Below the pieces are notes generated by a model that worked only from the letters and a program-made list of their open reading frames with translations, was not told the origin of the DNA and did no database searches. Below, piece after piece: positions 30,237-52,578 of a DNA stretch of 64,000 nucleotides. Position 1 is the stretch's first letter. Each line of letters starts with the position of its first letter. Position numbers and translations under genes: made by a program. Source of the DNA: Candidatus Cloacimonadales bacterium. GTDB lineage: Bacteria > Cloacimonadota > Cloacimonadia > Cloacimonadales > JAIOQZ01. The stretch covers positions 192,001-256,000 of the forward strand of contig OY771587.1 in NCBI GenBank assembly GCA_963674825.1, written 5' to 3'.

Positions 30237-30824
30237 TTGAGACGGCTGATCCTTCTCGTCATCCTGCTCCTGTGCGTTACGCTCGGGGCCGAAATCAAAT
30301 TCATCCCCGGCTTTGAATTCGATATCCGCACCGCGCCGGTGGTCGATGTTATTCGCATTGAACACACGGACGGTCGCAAGGACGTACTGGAAGGGAACGG
30401 ATCGCTTGGATTCCTCTTCGAGCCCGGATTCCAACTCATGAAAGAGAGCTACGAGGCCAGGCTTTCATCCGGCATCGGATTCCTGCACAACAATCTCTTC
30501 AACAGCGTTTATTTCTCGCTGGAAGGCAGTGTGTATTTCGACACCGGCTCACACCTGATGGTAGGCCCGCATCTGGGTACGTTCTATCTACTGTCCGCCT
30601 GGGATGGAGACAAGACCAGCCAGGACGATATCTCCATGCAGATGAACAGCCCCGGCATTATCGTCGGCGTCAGCATCACATCGGCAGGATTCGGTGCACG
30701 CATGATCGGTTCGCTCGACTACGTCAGCGGAAAGATCGACCTGGATGGAAAGAACGGATGGGTTCCCGGCGACGACCAGATAGACTATCAGGGACTCTCG
30801 CTCCGGATGGGCCTGGGGTTCTGA
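30237..30824 (+). CDS. Small outer-membrane beta-barrel protein (paralogue 1)
   Basis: Signal peptide; ends GW...DDQIDYQGLSLRMGLGF. Confidence 0.7.
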   Translation: MRRLILLVILLLCVTLGAEIKFIPGFEFDIRTAPVVDVIRIEHTDGRKDVLEGNGSLGFLFEPGFQLMKESYEARLSSGIGFLHNNLFNSVYFSLEGSVYFDTGSHLMVGPHLGTFYLLSAWDGDKTSQDDISMQMNSPGIIVGVSITSAGFGARMIGSLDYVSGKIDLDGKNGWVPGDDQIDYQGLSLRMGLGF

Positions 30825-30912
30825 TTCGTTAGCACAGCGCCGGATAATCTTGACATTTCCTAATCAATAGCCATACTTTGCCATTATGCAACGTTTTAAC
30901 ATTGGGCGGCGC

Positions 30913-31539
30913 ATGAGGCAATTTGTACTGATCGTCATCATGGTTCTCATAGGAGCTTCTTCTTTGCTATCCATTTCCGGTGAGGTGCATCTCGGGCTCA
31001 AGCCTCTCTTTTATTCGCCGGAGAATAGCGACTTCGAAGTGAAGCAGAAAGAGGAATCGCACTCCATGTTCGACCTATCGGGATTTGACGTCGGACCGGA
31101 TTTCTCCGGACTCGGGATCATGTTCTACACAATGTACAGCATTACAGACACAACCTTCTATCTCAACGCCACCACTTCGATGGGCGGGTTCACCGCGCAG
31201 GATTACGGCGTATGGATGTGGGCAAACGAGCTCGCAGCGCTCTATTCACTCACCGATTCTGTTCAAGCGGGATTTGTCGCCGGAATCAGCATCAGTAGCG
31301 GGAGAGTCATGGGAGACAACCCGTCCAACCTCCAATTGAGTTCGCAAGATCCCGGGACTTACTTCGGCATCCGGTTCCAGATGAAATGGACACAGGCACG
31401 TGCGGAATTCAGCATCGTTCATCATCGCCTCGTGTTCGATTACACCATAGACGACGAGTGGTACGCGAATAAGGACGAGCTGGATCTCTCGGGAACTTGC
31501 GTAAGCTTCGGCGTATCCTTCCCTCTGTTCGGGCATTGA
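30913..31539 (+). CDS. Small outer-membrane beta-barrel protein (paralogue 2)
   Basis: Signal peptide; ends WYANKDELDLSGTCVSFGVSF... Confidence 0.7.
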   Translation: MRQFVLIVIMVLIGASSLLSISGEVHLGLKPLFYSPENSDFEVKQKEESHSMFDLSGFDVGPDFSGLGIMFYTMYSITDTTFYLNATTSMGGFTAQDYGVWMWANELAALYSLTDSVQAGFVAGISISSGRVMGDNPSNLQLSSQDPGTYFGIRFQMKWTQARAEFSIVHHRLVFDYTIDDEWYANKDELDLSGTCVSFGVSFPLFGH

Positions 31540-31678
31540 TAATGAAAGAAATGTCCGGTATTCGCATGACGCTGGCGATATCGTTCCGCTTATTCGGCAA
31601 ATAAAGTTAACTCACCATAATTCTTGACAAGATGTACGGCCCTATCGCCAATGCCGATATTATAAAACAGGAGTGCTT

Positions 31679-32290
31679 ATGAAGCGAAATCACCTATTTT
31701 TATTAATCCTGCTACTCGTCCCCATGTTCTGTTTCGCAGAAGTGGACTTTATTCTCGGAATCAAAGAATGCACCCTCATCAGTCCTGACATTGATGGTTT
31801 CAAAGTAGAATCCGGTTACTCGGGAAGCTATTATTCGTACGAAGAATCGGTGGAGATCGAAGGTGCGTCTTCGGTTGGTTTTATTCTCAACACAGGCCTT
31901 GGCATCGATACCGATGTATTGGCGATTCACCTTACCGGCGGCGCAGGTTATATGTTCAACGCCGCATTCGGCACCGGTGTATTCACCGGTGAGACGGATC
32001 TGCTCTTCAAGCTCGGTTCCCACTTCATGATGGGACCTCGCGGTGGTGTGGTATTCTATGCACCGTCCTGGCTTGCAGTCGACGGCGATGTTACATTGAC
32101 GGCTGACGAACCGGGATTCATCGCTGGTTTCGGTGCTTATGGCGCTTGGAGCAAGATCAAAGTCGGTGGAAGCATCGAGTATCAGACAGGTTCATTCGAT
32201 GTAGAAACGGGTGATGGTTGGTACGCCAACGACGATGAGATCGATATCTCGGGTGTAGCGATCCGCCTTGGCGTGACATTTACATTCTAA
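31679..32290 (+). CDS. Small outer-membrane beta-barrel protein (paralogue 3)
   Basis: Signal peptide; ends GWYANDDEIDISGVAIRLGVTFTF. Confidence 0.75.
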   Translation: MKRNHLFLLILLLVPMFCFAEVDFILGIKECTLISPDIDGFKVESGYSGSYYSYEESVEIEGASSVGFILNTGLGIDTDVLAIHLTGGAGYMFNAAFGTGVFTGETDLLFKLGSHFMMGPRGGVVFYAPSWLAVDGDVTLTADEPGFIAGFGAYGAWSKIKVGGSIEYQTGSFDVETGDGWYANDDEIDISGVAIRLGVTFTF

Positions 32291-37384: not shown

Positions 37385-37415
37385 AAAAAAAGCCCAAGGT
37401 GAAAACCCTGGGCTT
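37385..37415 (-). terminator. Intrinsic terminator closing the ferredoxin/beta-barrel operon
   Basis: Minus strand AAGCCCAGGG-TTTTCA-CCTTGGGCTT plus T run. Confidence 0.85.
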
Positions 37416-37436: not shown

Positions 37437-38603
37437 TCAGAATCCGTATTCGATATTCAGGCTATGGACGGTCGTATCGTCCACGTACCTGGCATCGATA
37501 ACAGAAAAACCATAATAAACGCGAGTCTTGTATCGTGGCAGATAATAGGACAAATCGACACCCGCTTTGTATTCGTTCATGCGATCGCTGCCAAAATAGC
37601 GGTGATAAGCACCGTAGAGACTGAACGGACCAAAGTAGTACATCATCCCCATTCGAGCGATGGTAACATTCTCATTAAAGTGAGTCTTGATCGCGACCAG
37701 AAAGCGGTCGATGTGGTTGTCCTTATCGAAATTGAGATTATGCTGCAAGATACCCTCGTAGAAACCATTTCCCCACGCTTTCTGACTGTCGTCCTCGTTA
37801 TACCAGTATTGCTCTGTCACGCGGTTGATCATCATCCAATCGTGGAAATATTTACTGGTAATGCGCAGATCAGCCTCGCCGTACCAGGGCAGGTTTTCAT
37901 AAGCATCGGTGTTCACGGCAGCGAGCTCGATCTGCACCGTATGCACGGCATCGACCTTCTTCAGCATGCGGTTACCGAAACGAGTCTCGGTGTAATCGTA
38001 GGTATCGATATCGTTCATGTCGTTGAAATGCTGGACTTCCACAAACGGCTTCACCCAGTCGGTGAATTTATAGGCGATGCTCGCCTTGCCGTAACCGTCG
38101 CTGTCGATCCAGTAGTCTTCATCCTTGACCATCTCGTTGGTTGCGGCGTCGTACCGGTAACGGTCGTAGTAATTAGCCAGAAACTTCGCTTCCAGCATCG
38201 TTTCGAGTCCATTCCAGGTTCCAAACCAATCCAGTCCGCCGGAATATGAACTCTTCAGCAGAAACTGATCATCTGCGCCGACGATACGGGTCTCAAAATC
38301 GTCTTTGCTGTAGTTTTGCAGGCCGAACCAGGTGGAAATGTAGTAGTTGTCCGAGTATAAAGCGAGTCTCAGCTTATCACGAAGATAGGTACGCTTGTAA
38401 TCGCGTTCGAGTTCGTCATCGCTGTTACTTACCTTGGCATAAAGTGTGTTGGTCAGTTCAAGGCCGTCGCCACCGATACGCTCGAAATCGTACAAGCGTT
38501 CCATGAAGCCTTCGCGGCTATCCGATTCGATGCTGAGTGTTGCTTGCCGTGCGTAAAGAAAACCAGCACTCAGGATTGCGATGAGGATAATCAGCTTTCT
38601 CAT
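37437..38603 (-). CDS. Putative outer-membrane beta-barrel (388 aa)
   Basis: Signal peptide MRKLIILIAILSAGFLYA; Tyr/Phe-rich alternating strands; BAM-type terminus ...HSLNIEYGF; ATGA overlap with upstream gene. Confidence 0.75.
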   Translation of the reverse strand: MRKLIILIAILSAGFLYARQATLSIESDSREGFMERLYDFERIGGDGLELTNTLYAKVSNSDDELERDYKRTYLRDKLRLALYSDNYYISTWFGLQNYSKDDFETRIVGADDQFLLKSSYSGGLDWFGTWNGLETMLEAKFLANYYDRYRYDAATNEMVKDEDYWIDSDGYGKASIAYKFTDWVKPFVEVQHFNDMNDIDTYDYTETRFGNRMLKKVDAVHTVQIELAAVNTDAYENLPWYGEADLRITSKYFHDWMMINRVTEQYWYNEDDSQKAWGNGFYEGILQHNLNFDKDNHIDRFLVAIKTHFNENVTIARMGMMYYFGPFSLYGAYHRYFGSDRMNEYKAGVDLSYYLPRYKTRVYYGFSVIDARYVDDTTVHSLNIEYGF

Positions 38604-38872
38604 TGAATCGCATCCTTCGGGCAGATGGACACGCATTCGCCGCACTGTTTGCATCGTGTCTGGATGATCATCGGTTTCTCGCCATCGTATAGAATCGCGT
38701 TGTATGGGCATACATCAACGCAGCGTCCACATGCGATACAGGCGTCTTCATCGATCTGATAGAACGCGGACGGTGAAGCTGAGGTTGTGATAGTATCTTT
38801 CTTGTCGCAGGCAACGATGAACGCGCCTAATACAGCGATCATGATGAGCGAATAGATCATGAACTTTCTCAT
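38600..38872 (-). CDS. Lipoprotein 2[4Fe-4S] ferredoxin
   Basis: Lipobox FIVA-C-DKK; CIACGRCVDVCP and CKQCGECVSICP. Confidence 0.85.
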   Translation of the reverse strand: MRKFMIYSLIMIAVLGAFIVACDKKDTITTSASPSAFYQIDEDACIACGRCVDVCPYNAILYDGEKPMIIQTRCKQCGECVSICPKDAIQ

Positions 38873-39105
38873 TTGATCGCTCCGAAGGTGCAGGTTGTCG
38901 TGCAGAGCTTGCAATCGATGCACTTCGATTCGTCGATCATGGCTTTACCAGAGTGAACTTGAATCGCCTTGACCGGGCAGGCTTTGACGCAGTCACCGCA
39001 ACCCGTACAGTCAATGCGCGATACTTCCGGCTTGTTCTGGACCGCGGCGATCAGCATCGTAAACGCGACCAGCAGAATCATCGAGATGATAGCAATACGT
39101 TTCAT
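38869..39105 (-). CDS. Signal-peptide-bearing 2[4Fe-4S] ferredoxin
   Basis: MKRIAIISMILLVAFTMLIAA; CTGCGDCVKACP and CIDCKLCTTTCT. Confidence 0.85.
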   Translation of the reverse strand: MKRIAIISMILLVAFTMLIAAVQNKPEVSRIDCTGCGDCVKACPVKAIQVHSGKAMIDESKCIDCKLCTTTCTFGAIK

Positions 39106-39121
39106 GAGCATCCTTTATCGG

Positions 39122-42100
39122 TTAATTATTATAAGCAACAACACCCGGATCGATAGCGTTATAAGGGCAATAGGGCTCGCAATCGCCACAACCGATGCAG
39201 AGATCAGGATTGATCAGCTTGTAAGGGCCTGCATCGTATATCGCATCCTGATCGCAACGGTTGATACAGTTATTGCAATCATGGCAGCGATTCGTGGTGA
39301 TCTTATAAACAATTTTGCCGGCAGGAGAATTGGAGCAGCCGCTCACATTTCCGATCTCGTCGTAAGTCTTGATGGCGAAGTAGACAAGTTCGCCTTCGTC
39401 CAGACCGTTGATGTTGCATGTCTGCGTGGTTCCCGCGGCAGCAGGATCGGGCGGACTGGAGAACAGCGTCGCGCTTGCCCAGTTTGCTTCCGTGATGGCG
39501 GAACTGGAATATCGGATCTCATAATGATCGGCAGTTCCGGTTGCGCCGTCATCCCCGGGAGCGGTCCAACTGATACGGATGGTGGACATATTGACGTAGG
39601 TTGTCGTCACGGTCAGGTTATCGATTGTCTCAGGCGCAGTCGTGTCGTCTCCCAACGTCAAATCAACAATGTTGGATATCTGGGACTGGTTGTCTGCGTC
39701 GTCAGTTGTCTTGATTCCGAAATAATATTGAACATCGGATGACAAGCCGGTCACCGTATATTGCTGCTGCGTTCCCGCAACTGCCGGTGTCGGTGGATCA
39801 GACAGAAGTGTCGCGCTTCCCCAGTTTGTTTCATCGATAATCGTCGTAGCATAGCGGATTTCATAGCTTTCCGCAGTGCCAGTGTTTCCATCATCGCCAG
39901 GCGCAGTCCATGAAAGGAGCGCATCGTTTCCAGATTGTATAGCTTCCAGATCGTCAATATCTGCCGGTGCGGTGGTATCGAATATTCCGGATTCTGCAAC
40001 GTTGGAGATCTGGGCAATATTACCGCCGTTGTCGGTAGCTTTTATCGCGAAATAGAGGGTGACATCCTGTTCCGGTGAAACGACCGTATATTGTTGCGTC
40101 GTTCCAGCTTCGAGCGGATCAGGCGGATTATCGAGCGTCTCGGCATCTTGCCAATTGCTTTCTGTAATCTGCTGCGTGGACATGCGGATCTCATACGATT
40201 CAGCGGTGCCGGTATCGGCATCGTCGCCTGGTGCGGTCCACTGAAGCGTGATATCCGAACCATCGACTGCTGCTTGAAGATCGGCGATCGCAGAAGGCGC
40301 AGTGTCGTCCACAATTTCCGCATTCGCAATATTGGAAAGAGAAGAAACGTTCGCAGCGTCGTCAAATGCCTTGATCGCGAAAAAATAACTTGTATTATCA
40401 TTGGCGCTAAGCCACTCGAATTGCTGCTGTGTTCCGGATTCTTCCGGTGATGGCAGGCCTGTGAGTAGTGTTGCGTTTGTCCAGTTATCGTCATTGATAG
40501 AACTTTCCGATACGCGGATTTCATAGTACGCCGCGGTTCCAGTATCCTCATCGTCACCCGTAGCGGTCCAGGTCAGCATTATCGACTGTCCCTGGGCGAC
40601 AGCGGCGAGGTCGTCGATCTGTGAAGGAGCAGTTGTGTCCGCGTTCGAGTTGGTCTCACCCTGTGCGATATTGGATAAGTTGCTTACGTTCTCCATCTCG
40701 TCCATAGCCTTGATGGCAAACCAGTACGCGGTTTCCGGTTCAAGTCCGGTTACGATTATACTTTCCTGAGTCCCTGCAGGTTGAGGCGTAATCATCTCGT
40801 CAATCGCGCCGATACTGTTCCAGTTGCTGTCGGTTATCGGTTCGGTATAGACTTTGATGATATAGCTTGAAGCTGTACCGGTATCGCCGTCATCGCCGGG
40901 AGCTGTCCAGCGGATTTGCGCCGTGGAAGCCGACGTGTTGGTAACCGTAAGATCATCGACCGCAGAAGGTGCGATGTGATCAGGGATGGCGGATGTTTCA
41001 GCCGATACGACGTTGGATAGCGTCGATTGGTTCTCGCTATTATCGATCGCCTTAACGGCAAAGTAGTAGGTTGTGCTGCTTGTAAGGCCGGTAACCATGA
41101 GCATTTCCGATACTCCAGCCATTTGTGGATCGAGATCGTTGTCGAATGTAGTTGCCTGGGCCCAGTTCTGTGGCGTGATTTCCGATGTGGAATAGCGCAC
41201 GATGTACGCATCTGCTGTACCTGTTGTTCCATCATCTCCCACGGCTGTCCAGCGAAGCGAGATCGATTCCATCTCGATAGTCTCGACTTGCAGCGTGGTA
41301 ATCTGCGCCGGAGCAGTTGTATCCGGGCTGAAAGACGCCTGTGCGTTGTTGGAGACACCTGATTCGTTATCACTGCTGTCGTAAGCACGGATGGCGAAGT
41401 AGTGAATCGCTTGATCAGGCATATCGGTAACCATGAAGCTCTCGGGTGTACCGGCTTCGGACGGGGTGATATCGCTTTCGACCAAAGTTGCTTGCAACCA
41501 TGTCGCATCAGTGATGGCACTGCTCGCATAGCGAATCTCGTAGCGATCTGCGGTGCCTTCGTCGCCATCATCGCCGGGAGCAGTCCAAAGCAGCGTGATC
41601 TGATCCTCGTCGGAAAGCGCTGTAAGGTCTTCGATCGCTGCCGGAGCTGTTTCATCCGCTGCTTCGTCGGAGATCATGACGGAAATAGTCTGCGACTTCG
41701 CATATTGACCGCAATCGTCGAACGCGTGCACTGCAACCTGAACCGTCTGCTGCGGTGTCAGGCCAGAGATATGCCAGGTTTCGGTGAGACCGGCAATCTT
41801 GGGTGGATTGGGAGCAAAATTGTTTTGGATCGCGGTTCCGCTGGCGGTTTTAAGTATGAGCTCATAGCGCCAGGCAATACCCGAAGTGGAGTCATCGCCG
41901 GTTGCAGTGAACTGGATATCCAGCGTTCCGATTGAATCGGAGATTGCGCACAAATCGGTTATTGGAGAAGGCGCGATGGTATCTTCTGTGTATGTAAACG
42001 CGTCGTATTGGCATTGGAAATCGGTAATACAGCGCATGCACTGGACGCATTTATCAGGATCGATGGTCGCTGTCCCGCGGACTTCATCAATGTAGATCGC

Positions 42101-42298
42101 ATTCTGCGGACAATGGAATTCTTCGATACACTCGTAGCAGGCAGTACAATTCGAGTATTCGATGCGGACATCGCCATCGTTACTTGCGTTCTTGCTTATA
42201 TCATCGGTGCAGTAAAAGAGGAGCAATGAAAGAAACGGTAGCAGGAACAGCAGTAAACGATGTTTACGGTTTGCATGCTGAGAAGTTTGTTTGCGCAT
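39122..42298 (-). CDS. Lipoprotein: ferredoxin domain, 8 FN3 repeats, ferredoxin domain
   Basis: LLFY-C-TDD lipobox-like; two Cx2Cx2Cx5C motifs; eight (W/F)TA(P/T/V)GDD repeats; [11 protein letters not shown] and [12 protein letters not shown]. Confidence 0.88.
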
Positions 42299-42301
42299 GA
42301 C

Positions 42302-42835
42302 CTACTCCCCGGCAACCTCAACCGCGATAGCATCAACCGGACAAGCCTGGTCGCAGATGCCGCACTGGATACACTTTCCCTGATCGATCTGCGCGATACC
42401 CTGCTTCATGCTGATAGCTCCTGTAGGGCATTTTTTCTTGCAGATCTTGCAGCCGATGCACTTGTCTTCCTGGACCGCGTAAAGCTTGGATGCCTCTTCT
42501 TCTTGCGCAGGTACCTGAACGGAAGAGGTCTTCTTTTCCACCGGAACCGAGGTACTGTCCGGCTTTGCAGCCGTGGTATCCGCAGCAGCGGTTTCTTCAA
42601 CAACCGAGATCGCCGCAACCGGGCATGCCTTCACGCAAAGTCCGCACTGGATGCACTTTTCACGATCGATTATGGCTTTGCCGTCAACCATCGTAATGGC
42701 CTTCACCGGACATTTCTGTACGCAGAGTGTGCAGCCGATGCACTTGTCGGGATCGACCTTGTGGTATGTTGCCGAAGTGGCCATGAGCATCACGACCATA
42801 AGCGTTGCCAGCAGCATAATAATATATTTCTTCAT
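42302..42835 (-). CDS. Signal-peptide-bearing tandem ferredoxin (4 cluster motifs)
   Basis: MKKYIIMLLATLMVVMLMATSA; four CxxCxxCxxxCP motifs with an Ala/Thr/Ser/Pro/Glu linker; AAGGAG SD before ATG 42835. Confidence 0.88.
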   Translation of the reverse strand: MKKYIIMLLATLMVVMLMATSATYHKVDPDKCIGCTLCVQKCPVKAITMVDGKAIIDREKCIQCGLCVKACPVAAISVVEETAAADTTAAKPDSTSVPVEKKTSSVQVPAQEEEASKLYAVQEDKCIGCKICKKKCPTGAISMKQGIAQIDQGKCIQCGICDQACPVDAIAVEVAGE

Positions 42836-47061: not shown

Positions 47062-48090
47062 ATGCGCACAACCATCACCATCGCTCTGTTATTGCTCGTT
47101 TCGGCTATCTTCGCTTATCCCACACTACAGGGAGAAGGAATAACCAAGTTCACCGAATATGCAGAAGATCATCTTGAACTTATTGATGAAATTACCCTCG
47201 ACGACAAGTCTGTCGTAGTGCGCCGCGCACCGGCAACGAAACATGCCCTTGGCGAAGTGACGATCGAGAAAAGGAAAAAAGAACGAGAATATGTATTGAC
47301 CAAATCTTCAGACCTCGGCGTTACCCTGCGGAAATCCGAGGATCATCAATATTGGGAATGGTATGACGCCAATAACAATCTGTTGAATCGCTGCCCGGCC
47401 AACCCATACATATCGAAAATTGTGCCTGTAAACACCAATGGCTACTGGCTCATGTTTGAAGAGCCAAAAGAAGATCCATACGATTTTATCGAAGAACAGT
47501 ACAATTACGATGGTCCCTTGATCTATGCTGCAGATTTCAGATGCAATGTCGAATCCAGCAACTTCCCCAGCCAGTCCGGTGTCGTTATTTTCGACCAGGA
47601 TGGCAATAAAATGACGCAGGTTGAGCTTGCAGGAGGAAGCATCACAGACATAGATATTAGTCCTCTTGGTAAATATTTCAGGGTTGCAGCCTGGCCAAAT
47701 ATTGTTATAATGACCATCAAAGGGAGTATTGTCTGGCAGAGCGATACAGAGGGCTCACGAACGATAACCTTTTCCCCAAATGAGGAGCTGGCGTTTCTTG
47801 GTGTTGGTCAATGTAAGGTACTGGATTTATCAAATGGGAAATATCTCGCCAATATCCCATGCTTTTTCGAACAAACGACCTCAGTTGCAATTAGCGACAA
47901 GGAGGCTGGGATTGTCGCAGTACCAGGATATAACGAAATTCTTGTTTTCGATATATGGGCCGGGAAACAGATCGCAAGATTCAGACAAAAAGGAACAAAT
48001 ATTCAGCTTTCAGGTGATGGACGGCTCCTATCATTCAGAGGGATAGGGAAAGTTGTTACATATCGGCTTGATGGAATAGATGGAGAATAA
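47062..48090 (+). CDS. Secreted protein, propeller-like C-terminus (array copy 1)
   Basis: Signal peptide; ISP.G, FSP.E, SGDGR blade-like motifs; paralogous to 51544-52578. Confidence 0.8.
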   Translation: MRTTITIALLLLVSAIFAYPTLQGEGITKFTEYAEDHLELIDEITLDDKSVVVRRAPATKHALGEVTIEKRKKEREYVLTKSSDLGVTLRKSEDHQYWEWYDANNNLLNRCPANPYISKIVPVNTNGYWLMFEEPKEDPYDFIEEQYNYDGPLIYAADFRCNVESSNFPSQSGVVIFDQDGNKMTQVELAGGSITDIDISPLGKYFRVAAWPNIVIMTIKGSIVWQSDTEGSRTITFSPNEELAFLGVGQCKVLDLSNGKYLANIPCFFEQTTSVAISDKEAGIVAVPGYNEILVFDIWAGKQIARFRQKGTNIQLSGDGRLLSFRGIGKVVTYRLDGIDGE

Positions 48091-48092
48091 AC

Positions 48093-48197
48093 ATGAGAAG
48101 CTGCACACTAATATTGGCAATAATCCTGATAATGATTCTCGGTGCAGCCGTTCTTTTGGCAGAGGAAATCGAAGATGAAGAAAAAACACAAAATTAA
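48093..48197 (+). CDS. 34-aa signal-peptide mini-ORF (or truncated gene start)
   Basis: MRSCTLILAIILIMILGAAVLLAEEIEDEEKTQN*; GGAG SD at end of the upstream gene. Confidence 0.55.
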   Translation: MRSCTLILAIILIMILGAAVLLAEEIEDEEKTQN

Positions 48198-48260
48198 CAA
48201 ACCGAAAAATATTGACACCTGAAATATACCATTTCCTCATCTGCACAAGAGGAGAATATC

Positions 48261-48602
48261 ATGCGCACAACCACCACCATCGCTCTATTGCTGTTCGTTT
48301 CGGCTATCTTCGCTTATCCCACACTACGGGGAGACGGAATAACCAAGTTCACCGAATATGCAGAAGATCATCTTGAACTTATTGATGAAATTACCCTCGA
48401 CGACAAGTCTGTCGTAGTGCGCCGCGCACCGGCAACTCAAGCAAGATTTCGGATGGGAGCAAATTCGCCTTTTACAGTACCACAGGCTGAAAAATCTGAA
48501 TGCGATTTTCTGGCTCGCTGTATGTTTTCTTTACTCGATGATTACGGATGTGCCCGGATTACAATCGATAATGATGTCGGCATTTATCGAACGAAAAAGT
48601 GA
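48261..48602 (+). pseudogene. 5' fragment of array copy 2; homology ends at 48436
   Basis: Matches paralogues to ...VRRAPAT, then unrelated sequence. Confidence 0.8.
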
Positions 48603-48967
48603 CTGGAAGCGCCGTGGATTCGGTATCTACTACAGGTTAACCTACGTCATTTCGGAGTGTTTCCTATGGTTTGACTGGTACTGGATAAAGCCCGATAAAG
48701 GAAGGTGGAAAGAGCATTTACAGCTCAAGGTCAGGTTCGAATGAAAAAATGGGGGTATACCTGATTGTGTAAGAAAAAGATTGACAAACATCATGAGCTG
48801 GATTCATTTTAGAAGTTGTCTCATGGCAACGTTCCATGACAAAGCAGTTTTGCAAAATGGGGTGAAGTTGTGATTCGCAGCCTTCGATTCGATGAGGAAC
48901 AATTTGTTGGGATTAACACCAACCGTTGAAACGAAATAACTAATTTTCAATAAACAAGGAGAAAATT

Positions 48968-50224
48968 ATGAAGAAAATTACTTTGTTTTTGTTGTTTGTT
49001 CTTGCTGGTCTGTTGTTTGCCGAAGTTTCAATTCAGGAAATAGCTAACCTATTGAATCATGACCCATTTGATTTAACAGAAACATTGCTGGAAAGAGCTA
49101 AAAATGCAAGGGATCTTTCCCTTTCAGAAAAGCTTATTCAGACTTGGCAAGATGGCGCATGGGTAAATCAGGGAAGATATACGTATTCATATGACGAAAA
49201 TGGTTTTCTTGTGGTTGAACTGTTTCAAATATGGTCCGAAGAACAATGGATCAACGCAGGGAACACAAACTACTCCAACAATCCAGATGGACAGCCAGCG
49301 GAAATTATGTTACAGCAATGGGACGGCACCAATCAAGTTTGGGTTGATTATTTTTGGGCAACATATGAATATGATGAAAATGACAACTTGTTGCATGGGT
49401 TACTACAAGTAAACATGGGAGAAACCTGGGTCAATTGGGTTTACGCTACCAATACTTGGAGTAACGATAATCTCCTCATGGAAGTCTTTAAAGAAGAGTG
49501 GAGTAGTGAGTCCAATAATTGGGTAAATTATGAGATAAACACCTACACTTATGATAATGGGAATCTTATTTCATACATGGAACAAGAATGGCAGGACGGC
49601 GCCTGGCTAAATAAAGGGCTGGATACATACACAAACAATGCTGAAGGGTATAAAATCGAAATGATCTTCCAACAATGGCAAGAGTCAAATCGAAGCTGGG
49701 ATAATGCTTATCAAGAATTGTTTGAGTATGATGGGGATTGGAACATTACAACAGAATATCGAAATAACTGGAGTTGGAGCGGTCAAACCTGGACAGATTA
49801 TAGGGTGAAGTATAACACTTGGGAAGATGATGTCCTGGTAGAAACGCTGGAACGTGAGTGGAATGATTCACGTGAATGGATTGATATCAGCAAAACCAGC
49901 AATACCTATATGTTAGGTATTGATAGTGAAGAGGAAATGAATCCGATCAGCATTGTGTTGACTAATATGCCCAACCCATTCAATCCAACGACTACCATTA
50001 TGTTTTCACTGGTAGCCAACAGCAGAATTGAACTGGCGGTGTATAATATCAAGGGTCAGTTCGTGAAGATGCTTGCCCGTAATCCTTTCGACAAAGGAGA
50101 CCATCGTGTTACTTGGAATGGCGATGACGTAAATGGAAAACCGGTTAGCTCAGGTGTTTATTTCTTCAGGCTGAAGGTTGATGGTGTAACTGAAGTCGTG
50201 AGAAAAAGTCTGCTTCTGAAATGA
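48968..50224 (+). CDS. Secreted Trp-rich repeat protein with T9SS-like CTD
   Basis: About nine ~30-aa 'Q.W....W.N....Y.YD' repeats; PNPFNPTT...YNIKGQ...SSGVYF...KSLLLK; more AT-rich than flanks. Confidence 0.85.
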   Translation: MKKITLFLLFVLAGLLFAEVSIQEIANLLNHDPFDLTETLLERAKNARDLSLSEKLIQTWQDGAWVNQGRYTYSYDENGFLVVELFQIWSEEQWINAGNTNYSNNPDGQPAEIMLQQWDGTNQVWVDYFWATYEYDENDNLLHGLLQVNMGETWVNWVYATNTWSNDNLLMEVFKEEWSSESNNWVNYEINTYTYDNGNLISYMEQEWQDGAWLNKGLDTYTNNAEGYKIEMIFQQWQESNRSWDNAYQELFEYDGDWNITTEYRNNWSWSGQTWTDYRVKYNTWEDDVLVETLEREWNDSREWIDISKTSNTYMLGIDSEEEMNPISIVLTNMPNPFNPTTTIMFSLVANSRIELAVYNIKGQFVKMLARNPFDKGDHRVTWNGDDVNGKPVSSGVYFFRLKVDGVTEVVRKSLLLK

Positions 50225-50277
50225 TGGATTGTTTGGGCAAGAGCCAGTAGATAAACCGCGTTCTTCAAAAACCATAT

Positions 50278-50322
50278 AGGGAGTGTGAGACGCTGAAAAA
50301 AAGTCTTAGCTCCCTCTTTTTT
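50278..50322 (+). terminator. Probable terminator
   Basis: AGGGAG.....GAC...GTC....CTCCCT plus T run. Confidence 0.5.
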
Positions 50323-50584
50323 CAAACCGTGTGAATAAATTGCCAGCAGCTCGTGACCTCCCGTACGTTACCCCCAGGATTCAGAAGAGTCTCTGGCGCG
50401 ACCCATTTGGAAGTCGGGATTATACGGTTTTCCGAATGAGATTTCATGAACGCCATTGATATCTCGTTCAGAAAATACTCTCCAATAGAAGTGGTCTCGG
50501 AAATTAGGACTTGCGTATAAGTGGAAATCTTGCTCCATTGAACCAGAGATAAGAGAGAGTATTTAAGGAGTAAGAGAATGAGGA

Positions 50585-51373
50585 GACCTCGGCGTAACCC
50601 TGCGGAAATCGGAAGATTTGCAATACTGGGAATGGTACGACGCCAATAACAATCTGTTAAATCGCTGCCCGATCAATCCGTACATCTCCGAAATCGTGCC
50701 TGTCAACACCAATGGGTACTGGCTCATGTTTGAAGAACCCAAAGAAGATCCATACGATTTTATCGAAGAACAGTACAATTACGATGATCCCTTGATATAT
50801 GCTGCAGATTTCCGTTACAACGTCGAGTCCAGCAATTTCGCCAGCCAGTCCGGGGTCGTTATCTACGACTCGTACGGAAACAAAATGACACAGGTTGAGC
50901 TCGGGTGTGGGAATGTCAGTTCTGTTAAATACAGTCCATCAGGCAATTACTTCATTGTTGCAGCACATCCCAAGAACTTCCTCATGAGTATCGACGGACA
51001 CATTATACGAAAGTTCCAGAAAAGTGGGGGCATTTCCATCGTGTTTTCCCCCAGCGAAGAACTGGCAGTGCTCGCCCCTCCTTTTCCGTATGTAATCGAT
51101 CTCGAGACGGGGGAAATACTTGCCGAGATTTTTTCTTCATACGGATCATCAACGGTTGCTATCAGTGACAGAGAGGCTGGAATTGTAGCGGTTAAAAACG
51201 GTGGTCGTGGAAGTGGTATCCAAATATTTGATATATGGAAGGGAAAACAAATTGCACATTTCAAGCGAGATGGCACATATATTCAGCTCTCAGGTGATGG
51301 ACGGCTTATCTCATTCAAATCAAAAGGAGATATAATGCGTTCATACCTACTTGATGGCATAAGAGGAGAATAA
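50585..51373 (+). pseudogene. 3' fragment of array copy 2 (no signal peptide or start)
   Basis: Homology resumes at DLGVTLRKSED; in-frame TGA just upstream. Confidence 0.75.
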
Positions 51374-51375
51374 TC

Positions 51376-51480
51376 ATGAAAAAAAATACACTGTTTTTCG
51401 TTTTAACCCTCCTGATGATTATTAGCGCAGCCGTTCTTTTGGCAGAGGAAATCGAAGATGAAGAAAAAACACAAAATTAA
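51376..51480 (+). CDS. 34-aa signal-peptide mini-ORF (second copy)
   Basis: MKKNTLFFVLTLLMIISAAVLLAEEIEDEEKTQN*. Confidence 0.55.
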   Translation: MKKNTLFFVLTLLMIISAAVLLAEEIEDEEKTQN

Positions 51481-51543
51481 CAAACCGAAAAATATTGACA
51501 CCTGAAATATACCATTTCCTCATCTGCACAAGAGGAGAATATC

Positions 51544-52578
51544 ATGCGCACAACCACCACCATCGCTCTGTTTTTGCTCGTTTCCGCCATCTTCGCTTAT
51601 CCCACACTACGGGGAGAAGGAACAACCAAGTTCACCGAATATGCAGAAGATCATCTTGAACTTATTGATGAAATTACCCTCGACGACAAGTCTGTCGTAG
51701 TGCGCCGCGCACCGGCAACGAAACATGCCCTTGGCGAAGTGACGATCGAGAAAAGGAAAAAAGAACGAGAATATGTATTGACCAAATCTTCAGACCTCGG
51801 CGTTACCCTGCGGAAATCCGAGGATCATCAATATTGGGAATGGTATGACGCCAATAACAATCTGTTGAATCGCTGCCCGGCCAACCCATACATATCTGAA
51901 ATTGTGGACGTCAACACCAATGGCTACTGGCTCATGTTTGAAGAGCTAAAAGAAGATCCATACGATTTTATCGAAGAACAGTACGATTTCGATGGTCCCT
52001 TGATATATGCTGCAGATTTCAGATACAATGTCGAATCCAGCAACTTCCCCAGCCAGTCCGGGGTCGTTATTTACGACCAGAATGGCAATAAAATGACGCA
52101 GGTTGACCTTGAGTGTGGAGATGTAAGTTATATTGAAATGAGTCCTTCTGGAAACTACTTCATTGTTGCAGCACACCCCAAGACCTTCCTTATGAGTATA
52201 GATGGACTCATTAAAAGAGAATTCATGAAAAGCGGAGGAGTTTATATCAGTTTCTCTCCCAGCGAAGATCTGGCAGTACTTGGTCCTCCCCTGCCGTATG
52301 TAATCGATCTTGAGACAGGCGAAATACTTGCCAAGATTCATGGCACTTACGATTCATCAACGATTGCGATCAGCGACAAAGATGCTGGAATTGTTGCAGT
52401 GAGAGGAAATATCGGAATTCTTGTTTTCGATATATGGGCTGAGAAACAGATCGCAAGATTCAGACAAAACGGAACGAATATTCAACTCTCAGGCGATGGG
52501 CGGCTCCTATCATTCAGAGGGATAGGGAAAGTTGTTACATATCGGCTTGATGGAATAGATGGAGAGCAGTCAGAGTAA
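51544..52578 (+). CDS. Secreted protein, array copy 3 (intact)
   Basis: Near-identical N-terminal half and C-terminal tail to 47062-48090. Confidence 0.8.
   Translation: MRTTTTIALFLLVSAIFAYPTLRGEGTTKFTEYAEDHLELIDEITLDDKSVVVRRAPATKHALGEVTIEKRKKEREYVLTKSSDLGVTLRKSEDHQYWEWYDANNNLLNRCPANPYISEIVDVNTNGYWLMFEELKEDPYDFIEEQYDFDGPLIYAADFRYNVESSNFPSQSGVVIYDQNGNKMTQVDLECGDVSYIEMSPSGNYFIVAAHPKTFLMSIDGLIKREFMKSGGVYISFSPSEDLAVLGPPLPYVIDLETGEILAKIHGTYDSSTIAISDKDAGIVAVRGNIGILVFDIWAEKQIARFRQNGTNIQLSGDGRLLSFRGIGKVVTYRLDGIDGEQSE

Follow-up and report, generated by a model that had tools for sequence, protein, structure and literature searches.

A conserved operon in Candidatus Cloacimonadales encodes apparently exported ferredoxin-type proteins together with a predicted outer-membrane beta-barrel. 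It lies within a 64,000-nucleotide stretch of the genome (contig OY771587.1, positions 192,001 to 256,000; hereafter the window), where five co-directional open reading frames (ORFs), A to E, occupy 37437..42835 on the minus strand. From gene order, signal sequences and structural models, we put slightly better than even chances on this operon specifying a heme-free porin/iron-sulphur (Fe-S) conduit across the outer membrane of Cloacimonadota. The features are as follows.

A (42302..42835, minus strand): 177 residues; signal-peptide tandem ferredoxin, two 2[4Fe-4S]-type domains and a flexible linker; variable member.
B (39122..42298, minus strand): 1058 residues; lipoprotein with a ferredoxin domain at each end and a fibronectin type III (FN3) middle.
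C (38869..39105, minus strand): 78 residues; small signal-peptide 2[4Fe-4S]-type ferredoxin; core member.
D (38600..38872, minus strand): 90 residues; lipoprotein 2[4Fe-4S]-type ferredoxin; core member and candidate occupant of the barrel.
E (37437..38603, minus strand): 388 residues; predicted plug-less 20-strand outer-membrane beta-barrel with a C-terminal Phe and no Cys; core member.
Intrinsic-terminator-like hairpin (37385..37415, minus strand): 11 pairs (6 G-C) at 37415-37390 with a T-tail; operon end.

A preliminary description of this DNA had reported co-oriented genes with short gaps, two ATGA overlaps and a terminator hairpin, and all of these were recovered by ORF calling and hairpin analysis. 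The gaps are 3 nucleotides (A/B) and 16 nucleotides (B/C), and the overlaps fall at C/D and D/E. As a class, terminator-like sites showed no excess in that 10 kb (11 found, versus 8.5 ± 2.8 in shuffled sequences). The GC content of the operon (0.48-0.53) is the same as that of the window, so nothing suggests recent transfer. The twelve four-Cys motifs that had been counted are present as CxxCxxC sets (four each in A and B, two each in C and D), but only eight follow the strict CxxCxxCxxxCP pattern: the N-terminal pair of B has widened spacing, and the third set of B and the second of C lack the Pro. The reported absence of CxxCH heme motifs holds for all five genes. Each of A to D matched Pfam Fer4 above cut-off (E=1e-34, 7e-14, 2e-13 and 3e-18, respectively), with two CxxCxxCxxxC(P) sets per domain.

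The operon core is widespread in the phylum. Searching with a 68-row profile located E in 112 of 232 Cloacimonadota genomes, including 43 of the 98 in one family (f3), and in 78 of the 151 high-quality genomes. Smaller queries understated this range: single-sequence and nine-row searches matched 9 of 61 genomes and later 39 of 232, with 0 of 98 in f3, an apparent absence that the larger profile ruled out. Out of 1.84 billion proteins, the nine-row profile picked up 37 representatives, and word-index protein searches gave only 4 and 5 proteins. Of 38 other loci, 28 were examined, and a small ferredoxin gene was close to E in all 28. Neighbourhoods were counted for 79 distinct near-complete E genes, a sample enriched in F, a membrane-protein gene described below, 80 loci having been gathered using F as query. 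Of the 75 loci with sufficient flanking sequence, 71 had C then D directly upstream of E (D was adjacent in 72), and F lay directly downstream in 56 of 74. B was present in 39 of 71 E loci, and 11 of 71 had H, a ferredoxin bearing a type IX-type tail. The four exceptions to the C-D-E order comprise two loci with an Asp-substituted D (L141 and L143), one with an altered C (L156), and L140. We show here, on the evidence of gene order, that C and D are genetically locked to E. Retention across the phylum likewise indicates that the five-gene set is not a chance assembly. The preliminary description had treated the five genes as equal parts; that layout gives way to a conserved core, C-D-E, with A and B variable and further parts (F, G and H) elsewhere in the genome.

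Many Cloacimonadaceae carry the minimal C-D-E module; in L147-L158 the genes upstream of it often include one for a PAP2-family protein and a presumed ribosomal protein S1-like gene, and sometimes a presumed LemA gene. In one Cloacimonadaceae lineage (L140-L143, L137, L159, L160), the operon or F directly follows a gene of ~830 codons, presumably for a dihydropyrimidine-dehydrogenase-like flavo-Fe-S protein, itself preceded in L137, L159 and L160 by what appears to be a xanthine-dehydrogenase-like gene. Outside the phylum, E was found in 1 of 16 genomes of the phylum to which a Delongbacteria-labelled record belongs, which could be a case of transfer or mis-binning. Among the named records for the best 80 of 96 confirmed F relatives, 76 are labelled Cloacimonadota/Cloacimonetes, 2 'uncultured bacterium', 1 Delongbacteria and 1 Armatimonadota. 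Lower-ranked metagenome matches to the D pattern without E were, among those inspected, signal-less ferredoxins, except for a C-D pair at a contig end (L218).

That E folds as a barrel, as first proposed, was borne out by AlphaFold2: with 55 aligned sequences, the mature protein was modelled as 20 strands spanning residues 2-369 (pLDDT 93.2, pTM 0.83) with no plug. Its strands alternate hydrophobic and polar faces, the inward charges are balanced (~22 basic and 20 acidic), and the lumen has no conserved inward Cys or His. From the diameter formula for 20-strand barrels, we estimate a C-alpha diameter of 35-38 Å, into which one small ferredoxin would fit. E matched no Pfam or NCBIfam family above cut-off, and a PDB sequence search returned nothing at E<0.01 for E or F. 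Foldseek and VIA-align neighbours were generic barrels at 6-12% identity: BtuB (Z 17.2, root-mean-square deviation (rmsd) 4.6, 323 residues aligned), VDAC1 (Z 15.3, rmsd 4.4, 254 aligned), AlgE (Z 14.7) and, at rank 44, MtrB (6r2q_B; Z 12.8, rmsd 6.4, 346 aligned, 7% identity). E is not a typical TonB-dependent transporter, having 20 rather than 22 strands that start at mature residue 2 and no plug; one homologue gave a weak, sub-cut-off TonB barrel match (E=8e-4). The modelled fold thus identifies E as a new family of plug-less 20-strand outer-membrane barrels.

Such a barrel could also be a solute porin, admitting polysulfide, Fe(II) or organics on which C, D, A, F and G would act as a periplasmic relay. 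This would need no catalytic subunit outside the cell, and the nearest solved folds are indeed transport barrels, with MtrB lower. However, an unplugged 20-strand pore would be very leaky, and the type IX-tailed ferredoxins and DUF2271 proteins described below imply redox centres beyond the outer membrane. We consider a porin of this kind quite improbable. It is likewise unlikely, in our judgement, that E serves as a channel devoted to export or assembly (Slam-like), or as an anchor, that places redox-active ferredoxin lipoproteins on the surface without electrons passing through the barrel. Slam (type XI) translocons combine a TPR domain with a 14-strand barrel, and the E model has 20 strands and no helical domain, although in one locus (L015) a TPR protein takes the place of A. 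The lumen of E is empty and wide, as an export channel would be, and weak evidence comes from ESM Atlas look-alikes, which include alginate-export, OmpG and SlipAM (19% of members) clusters besides unnamed ones (scores 0.94-0.96; recognition 2030, below threshold). Yet the minimal C-D-E module has no large lipoprotein cargo, and H and DUF2271 proteins have their own exit through type IX tails and SprA. E itself bears a flavinylation-like motif in one clade, and the complex score reported below, itself weak, was lost on replacing D.

The ferredoxins are strongly conserved. All eight cluster Cys of C, and the lipid-anchor Cys22 and all eight cluster Cys of D, are invariant in 27 of 27 sequences, as is the lipid-anchor Cys30 of B in 9 of 9. 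In many relatives, A consists of an extra N-terminal domain and a single ferredoxin domain. B had been described as a lipoprotein with ferredoxin domains at both ends, which is correct, but its middle of ~870 residues had been overlooked; this consists of fibronectin type III sequence (fn3 E=2e-41), about 8 acidic FN3 repeats, and B as a whole is strongly acidic (net -129). Its homologues have 595-1720 residues with 4-14 repeat motifs, apart from one of 308 residues. As FN3 repeats hold no redox centre, B would be a tethered carrier or adhesive stalk and not a wire. In the ESM Atlas, the second-nearest cluster to D (0.87, 76 residues, 90 members) is commonest in Ca. Fermentibacterota; at a score <0.9 this is only a lead that exported ferredoxins may reach another phylum.

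N-termini were judged by a heuristic (n-region charge, h-region length and twin-arginine translocation (Tat) motif), not by SignalP. The sample comprised 27 C, 27 D, 9 B and 9 E sequences. In all 72 the n-region is basic (minimum +1), and a Tat motif is missing throughout; h-regions are 15-18 residues long, with a mean of 18 for C. The n-region charge of the host RnfB is 0. The N-termini therefore resemble Sec or lipoprotein signals rather than RnfB-type anchors, which favours export on a point on which the preliminary description had hung. Were they uncleaved anchors, with the ferredoxins facing the cytoplasm and E an unrelated neighbour, Fe-S loading without Tat would be explained and the long h-region of C would be accommodated. 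Such an arrangement is nevertheless hard to reconcile with basic n-regions in every N-terminus, with the invariant lipoprotein Cys of B and D, with the C-D-E linkage, or with the existence of fusions between ferredoxins and type IX tails, which can hardly be cytoplasmic. We regard it as very improbable.

TatC is absent from the host genome by profile search (controls matched in 11 of 14) and is above cut-off in only 8 of 232 phylum genomes. Export without Tat is thus the best-supported reading of the predicted topology. Proteins with Fer4 domains are normally cytoplasmic, or exported by Tat if extracytoplasmic, a norm from which these ferredoxins depart. With neither TatC nor a Tat motif, any cluster must be loaded after Sec passage, beyond the inner membrane; the literature searched yielded no precedent for cluster building there. 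B starts C-T-D-D after the lipid Cys, presumably a counterpart of Bacteroidota surface-export signals, and the linker of A carries D-[ST]-[AILVMT] motifs that we take to be of the O-glycosylation type.

Three partner genes lie elsewhere in the host genome; in relatives, F and G often accompany C-D-E. F (C1:3413436-3414800) is a DsbD_2 (PF13386) membrane protein, G (C1:3058124-3058906) is a NapH-like membrane polyferredoxin (PF12801, Fer4_5), and H (C1:683119-683901, minus strand) joins a signal peptide and a 2[4Fe-4S] ferredoxin to CarboxypepD_reg and Por_Secre_tail domains. An H-like ferredoxin is found inside the operon in L058, L101, L105, L141 and L142, and the ferredoxin-Por_Secre_tail fusion was above cut-off in the host H and the in-operon L058 gene. 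H is apparently routed through type IX secretion, as far as its domains indicate. Beside it, at C1:686886-691237, are four tandem genes that we take to be flagellin-like. The neighbours of G in the host genome resemble the operon flanks in a relative (G006), so that the operon has probably been split by rearrangement in the host. In two genomes, G adjoins a gene for a secreted DUF1573 and rhodanese protein (L014:4853-5632, L016:11511-12308), which could point to sulfur transfer into cluster assembly outside the cytoplasm, or to sulfur chemistry.

F has six transmembrane helices and a soluble alpha/beta domain after the last helix. Its conserved Cys are in helices 1 and 4, and there is a weak internal repeat, features shared with both CcdA/DsbD and RnfA/E-NqrD/E. 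F differs from these in having four invariant Cys (in 72 sequences) and in the extra soluble domain. Foldseek of the F model gave no match at E<=0.001, and whole-domain VIA comparisons with RnfA (Z 8.0, rmsd 5.2, 144 aligned) and NqrE (Z 7.9, rmsd 6.6, 151 aligned) were within helical-bundle noise. Profile comparison did not support a relationship to RnfA/E-NqrD/E: hhalign gave a probability of 0.7% against RnfA and 0.15% against RnfE (positive control 99.65%), with the Cys unaligned.

The character of F bears on a further possibility, that the exported ferredoxin folds bind Zn, Cu, Hg or Fe, or cycle between dithiol and disulfide fed by F, and so serve metal scavenging, buffering or detoxification through E. 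Pairs of NapH/CcoG-like and DsbD_2 proteins are associated with copper handling, and the invariant Cys of F, the acidity of B and the lack of Tat would all suit such a role. Flavinylation gene clusters have, moreover, been linked to iron assimilation in the accessible text of PMC8238504. Against this, every domain retains complete 2[4Fe-4S] spacing throughout the phylum, the barrel lumen lacks conserved Cys or His, and no metal transporter recurs in the loci inspected. In L141, L142 and L143, one Cys of the second D motif is replaced by Asp, an exchange that occurs among Fe-S ligands but is not known for disulfides. We consider a metal or thiol function unlikely.

The host genome, a single 3.89-Mb contig that is 99.6% complete, gave no match to the cytochrome c assembly family (CcsA/CcmF, PF01578; control matched in 9 of 14 genomes). 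It encodes no multiheme protein, the sole ORF with at least two CxxCH motifs looking like DnaJ. SprA is present together with 114 ORFs with a N[YF]PNPFN-type tail. So are Rnf, NifU with an IscS-like neighbour, and ApbE (C1:411915-412721, outside the operon); SufBD of the SUF system was not matched in the host genome. A gene in the window is presumably that for PFOR, to judge from its N-terminus. Quinol was considered as electron donor to G and set aside: the only UbiA-family gene adjoins a prenyl synthase gene (C1:2599204-2600967), no second UbiA-family prenyltransferase was found, and this search, which covered the UbiA route alone, lends a quinone pool no support. We assume the two genes to be a DGGGP-synthase pair (archaeal-type ether lipids, as in FCB bacteria). 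Two further tandem genes (C1:2535738-2537980, minus strand) presumably encode DUF362-like Fe-S proteins, one with an N-terminal hydrophobic segment and thus possibly another extracytoplasmic Fe-S protein.

A flavin variant accompanies the minimal module. Here C-D-E neighbours a protein of ~360 residues with a signal peptide, DUF2271 and a FlgD/type IX-type tail (in L157 a CarboxypepD domain lies between them). Counting the 76 genomes with a best match at E<=2.4e-6, of 124 with any match, DUF2271 was <=8 kb from E in 28 of 35 genomes with E and no F, versus 2 of 77 with both, 30 relatives in all. Among the 98 genomes of family f3, 39 had both E and DUF2271, 4 E only, 2 DUF2271 only and 53 neither, these kin not being independent. 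DUF2271 has been shown experimentally to be flavinylated by ApbE at a [S/T]GA[S/T]-like motif, according to the accessible text of PMC8238504, and the proteins found here carry TSAS/TGAS-type motifs. E itself has [ST][GS]A[ST] at one aligned column after strand 1 in 11 of 68 rows, and anywhere in 17 of 68 (shuffled mean 3.4, maximum 10). D of the host carries TTSAS, which is not conserved among D homologues, and FMN_bind gave no match in A-E, F or G. These links tie the barrel to extracytosolic redox chemistry without recourse to the Cys motifs.

The preliminary description raised the docking of a ferredoxin in the barrel, for which complex prediction gave a D-dependent but weak score. C, D and E with four 4Fe-4S clusters scored a median of 0.50 (runs 0.50, 0.40 and 0.60) with no interface returned, and the best of three controls, one of them with D replaced, reached 0.00. 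The runs agreed in at least 54% of contacts, with partner pLDDT of at least 73. Of 157 solved pairs, 116 attained the mark, as did 2 of 215 mismatched pairs, but only 18 of the 157 and both mismatches did so at <=0.60; these benchmark counts apply only roughly to a job of this kind. The prediction raises the odds modestly, docking having been reasonably likely beforehand from the ATGA coupling and the adjacency of D.

In the conduit that we favour, low-potential electrons from cytoplasmic ferredoxin would cross the inner membrane through G and/or F, and C and A would be periplasmic shuttles. Lipoprotein D may then form a conducting plug in the lumen of E, as the complex score hints. Co-occurrence suggests that the surface carriers could be the ends of B, H, DUF2271 with flavin mononucleotide (FMN), or FMN on the first loop of E; such surface modules vary by lineage between an FN3-stalk B, type IX-tailed ferredoxins and type IX-tailed DUF2271. 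Because there is no Tat, we propose that F may also keep apo-protein thiols reduced for cluster building outside the cytoplasm. The likeliest direction in a fermenter would be outward, to minerals, sulfur, humics or a partner cell, or to an external metal reduced for uptake. Of the conduit as first proposed, the barrel, the co-occurrence and the export-type N-termini have held up; the five-part layout has been revised, and B would not be a continuous wire. A more specific scheme, with Sec-exported apo-ferredoxins loaded with [4Fe-4S] beyond the inner membrane independently of Tat, and a ferredoxin-plugged barrel with type IX terminals forming a cytochrome-free wire to minerals or syntrophs, we hold to be possible, at somewhat under an even chance.

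Several observations weigh against a conduit. F and G are megabases from the operon in the host genome, a loose link to the inner membrane; F was not found in 35 of 112 genomes with E, and 16 of 93 with F had no E match. No terminal reductase gene is nearby, and the loci show no evident machinery for assembling Fe-S clusters outside the cytoplasm. Given the distribution of TatC, holo-ferredoxins cannot exit by a known route. The flavin links are missing from the host itself, where E lacks the flavinylation-like motif and there is no strong DUF2271 match (best E=8e-4). The ferredoxin ends of B are held apart by its repeat motifs, and since the complex score is weak and came without an interface, we infer rather than observe D inside the lumen. 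Finally, a single 2[4Fe-4S] domain is too short to cross a whole membrane, so at least two carriers would need to be stacked.

The layout recalls MtrCAB, Pcc, MtoAB and PioAB, in which an outer-membrane barrel is combined with a periplasmic and a lipoprotein carrier. As in these porin-cytochrome conduits, the barrel is genetically tied to both carriers and lacks cofactor ligands of its own; in contrast, C-D-E has no c-heme, CxxCH or maturation system, and its carriers are 2[4Fe-4S]-type ferredoxins. E (370 residues, 20 strands) falls outside the MtrB/PioB family, to judge from the lack of any family above cut-off and an only generic likeness to MtrB. Shewanella DmsEFAB-type reductases also pair a barrel with an Fe-S subunit outside the cytoplasm, but their barrel contains a decaheme, and they rely on a molybdo-enzyme and on export by Tat; the host locus shares the barrel and, by prediction, extracytoplasmic Fe-S and has none of the other three. 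In PioABC, described with Cyc2 in the available part of PMC13741234, the Fe-S protein is a periplasmic high-potential iron-sulphur protein (HiPIP) and the barrel holds a decaheme. ApbE-flavinylation systems, as presented in the accessible portions of PMC8238504 and 10.1101/2024.03.13.584918, resemble the present one in heme-free extracytosolic redox chemistry, a NapH-like PF12801 or DsbD-family protein, DUF2271 and [S/T]GA[S/T]-like motifs. Here, however, F belongs to PF13386 rather than PF02683, G lacks an FMN-binding domain, E lacks DUF3570, and ApbE is encoded outside the operon. Those portions are silent on exported ferredoxins, and the word 'porin' is absent from the 2021 main text. In the accessible text of two Cloacimonadota surveys (PMC8542988 and 10.1101/2021.10.08.463351), ferredoxins are discussed only in cytoplasmic or membrane energy metabolism, and the available parts of PMC10734462 and PMC13741234 contain no Fe-S-filled porin. 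The literature searched, mostly without subscription papers and without the gene-cluster tables of PMC8238504, held no description of this gene set. The phylum-wide system, combining a new barrel family with ferredoxins exported independently of Tat, is apparently undescribed.

Elsewhere in the window, three tandem signal-peptide ORFs of ~200 residues (30237-32290, plus strand) have no Pfam match; two are Phe-terminated, and they resemble small outer-membrane barrels. At 47062-52578 (plus strand), near-identical copies or fragments of a secreted ORF of 342-344 residues, also without a Pfam match, start at 47062, 48261, 50618 and 51544 and surround a low-GC stretch at 48-52 kb.

The outer-membrane conduits in the literature consulted use c-type hemes. 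A low-potential Fe-S version, if true, would extend extracellular electron transfer to those fermenters whose lack of cytochromes makes them score negative in gene surveys. For Cloacimonetes, type IV pilus genes and a low hydrogenase/formate dehydrogenase content have led to the suggestion of direct interspecies electron transfer, with no outer-membrane conduit named in the available text (PMC8892533). The gene set described here provides a concrete conduit candidate, carried by roughly half of the phylum. Should the conduit reading fail, ferredoxins exported by Sec or fitted with type IX tails would still raise, for cells without Tat, the question whether [4Fe-4S] clusters can form outside the cytoplasm.

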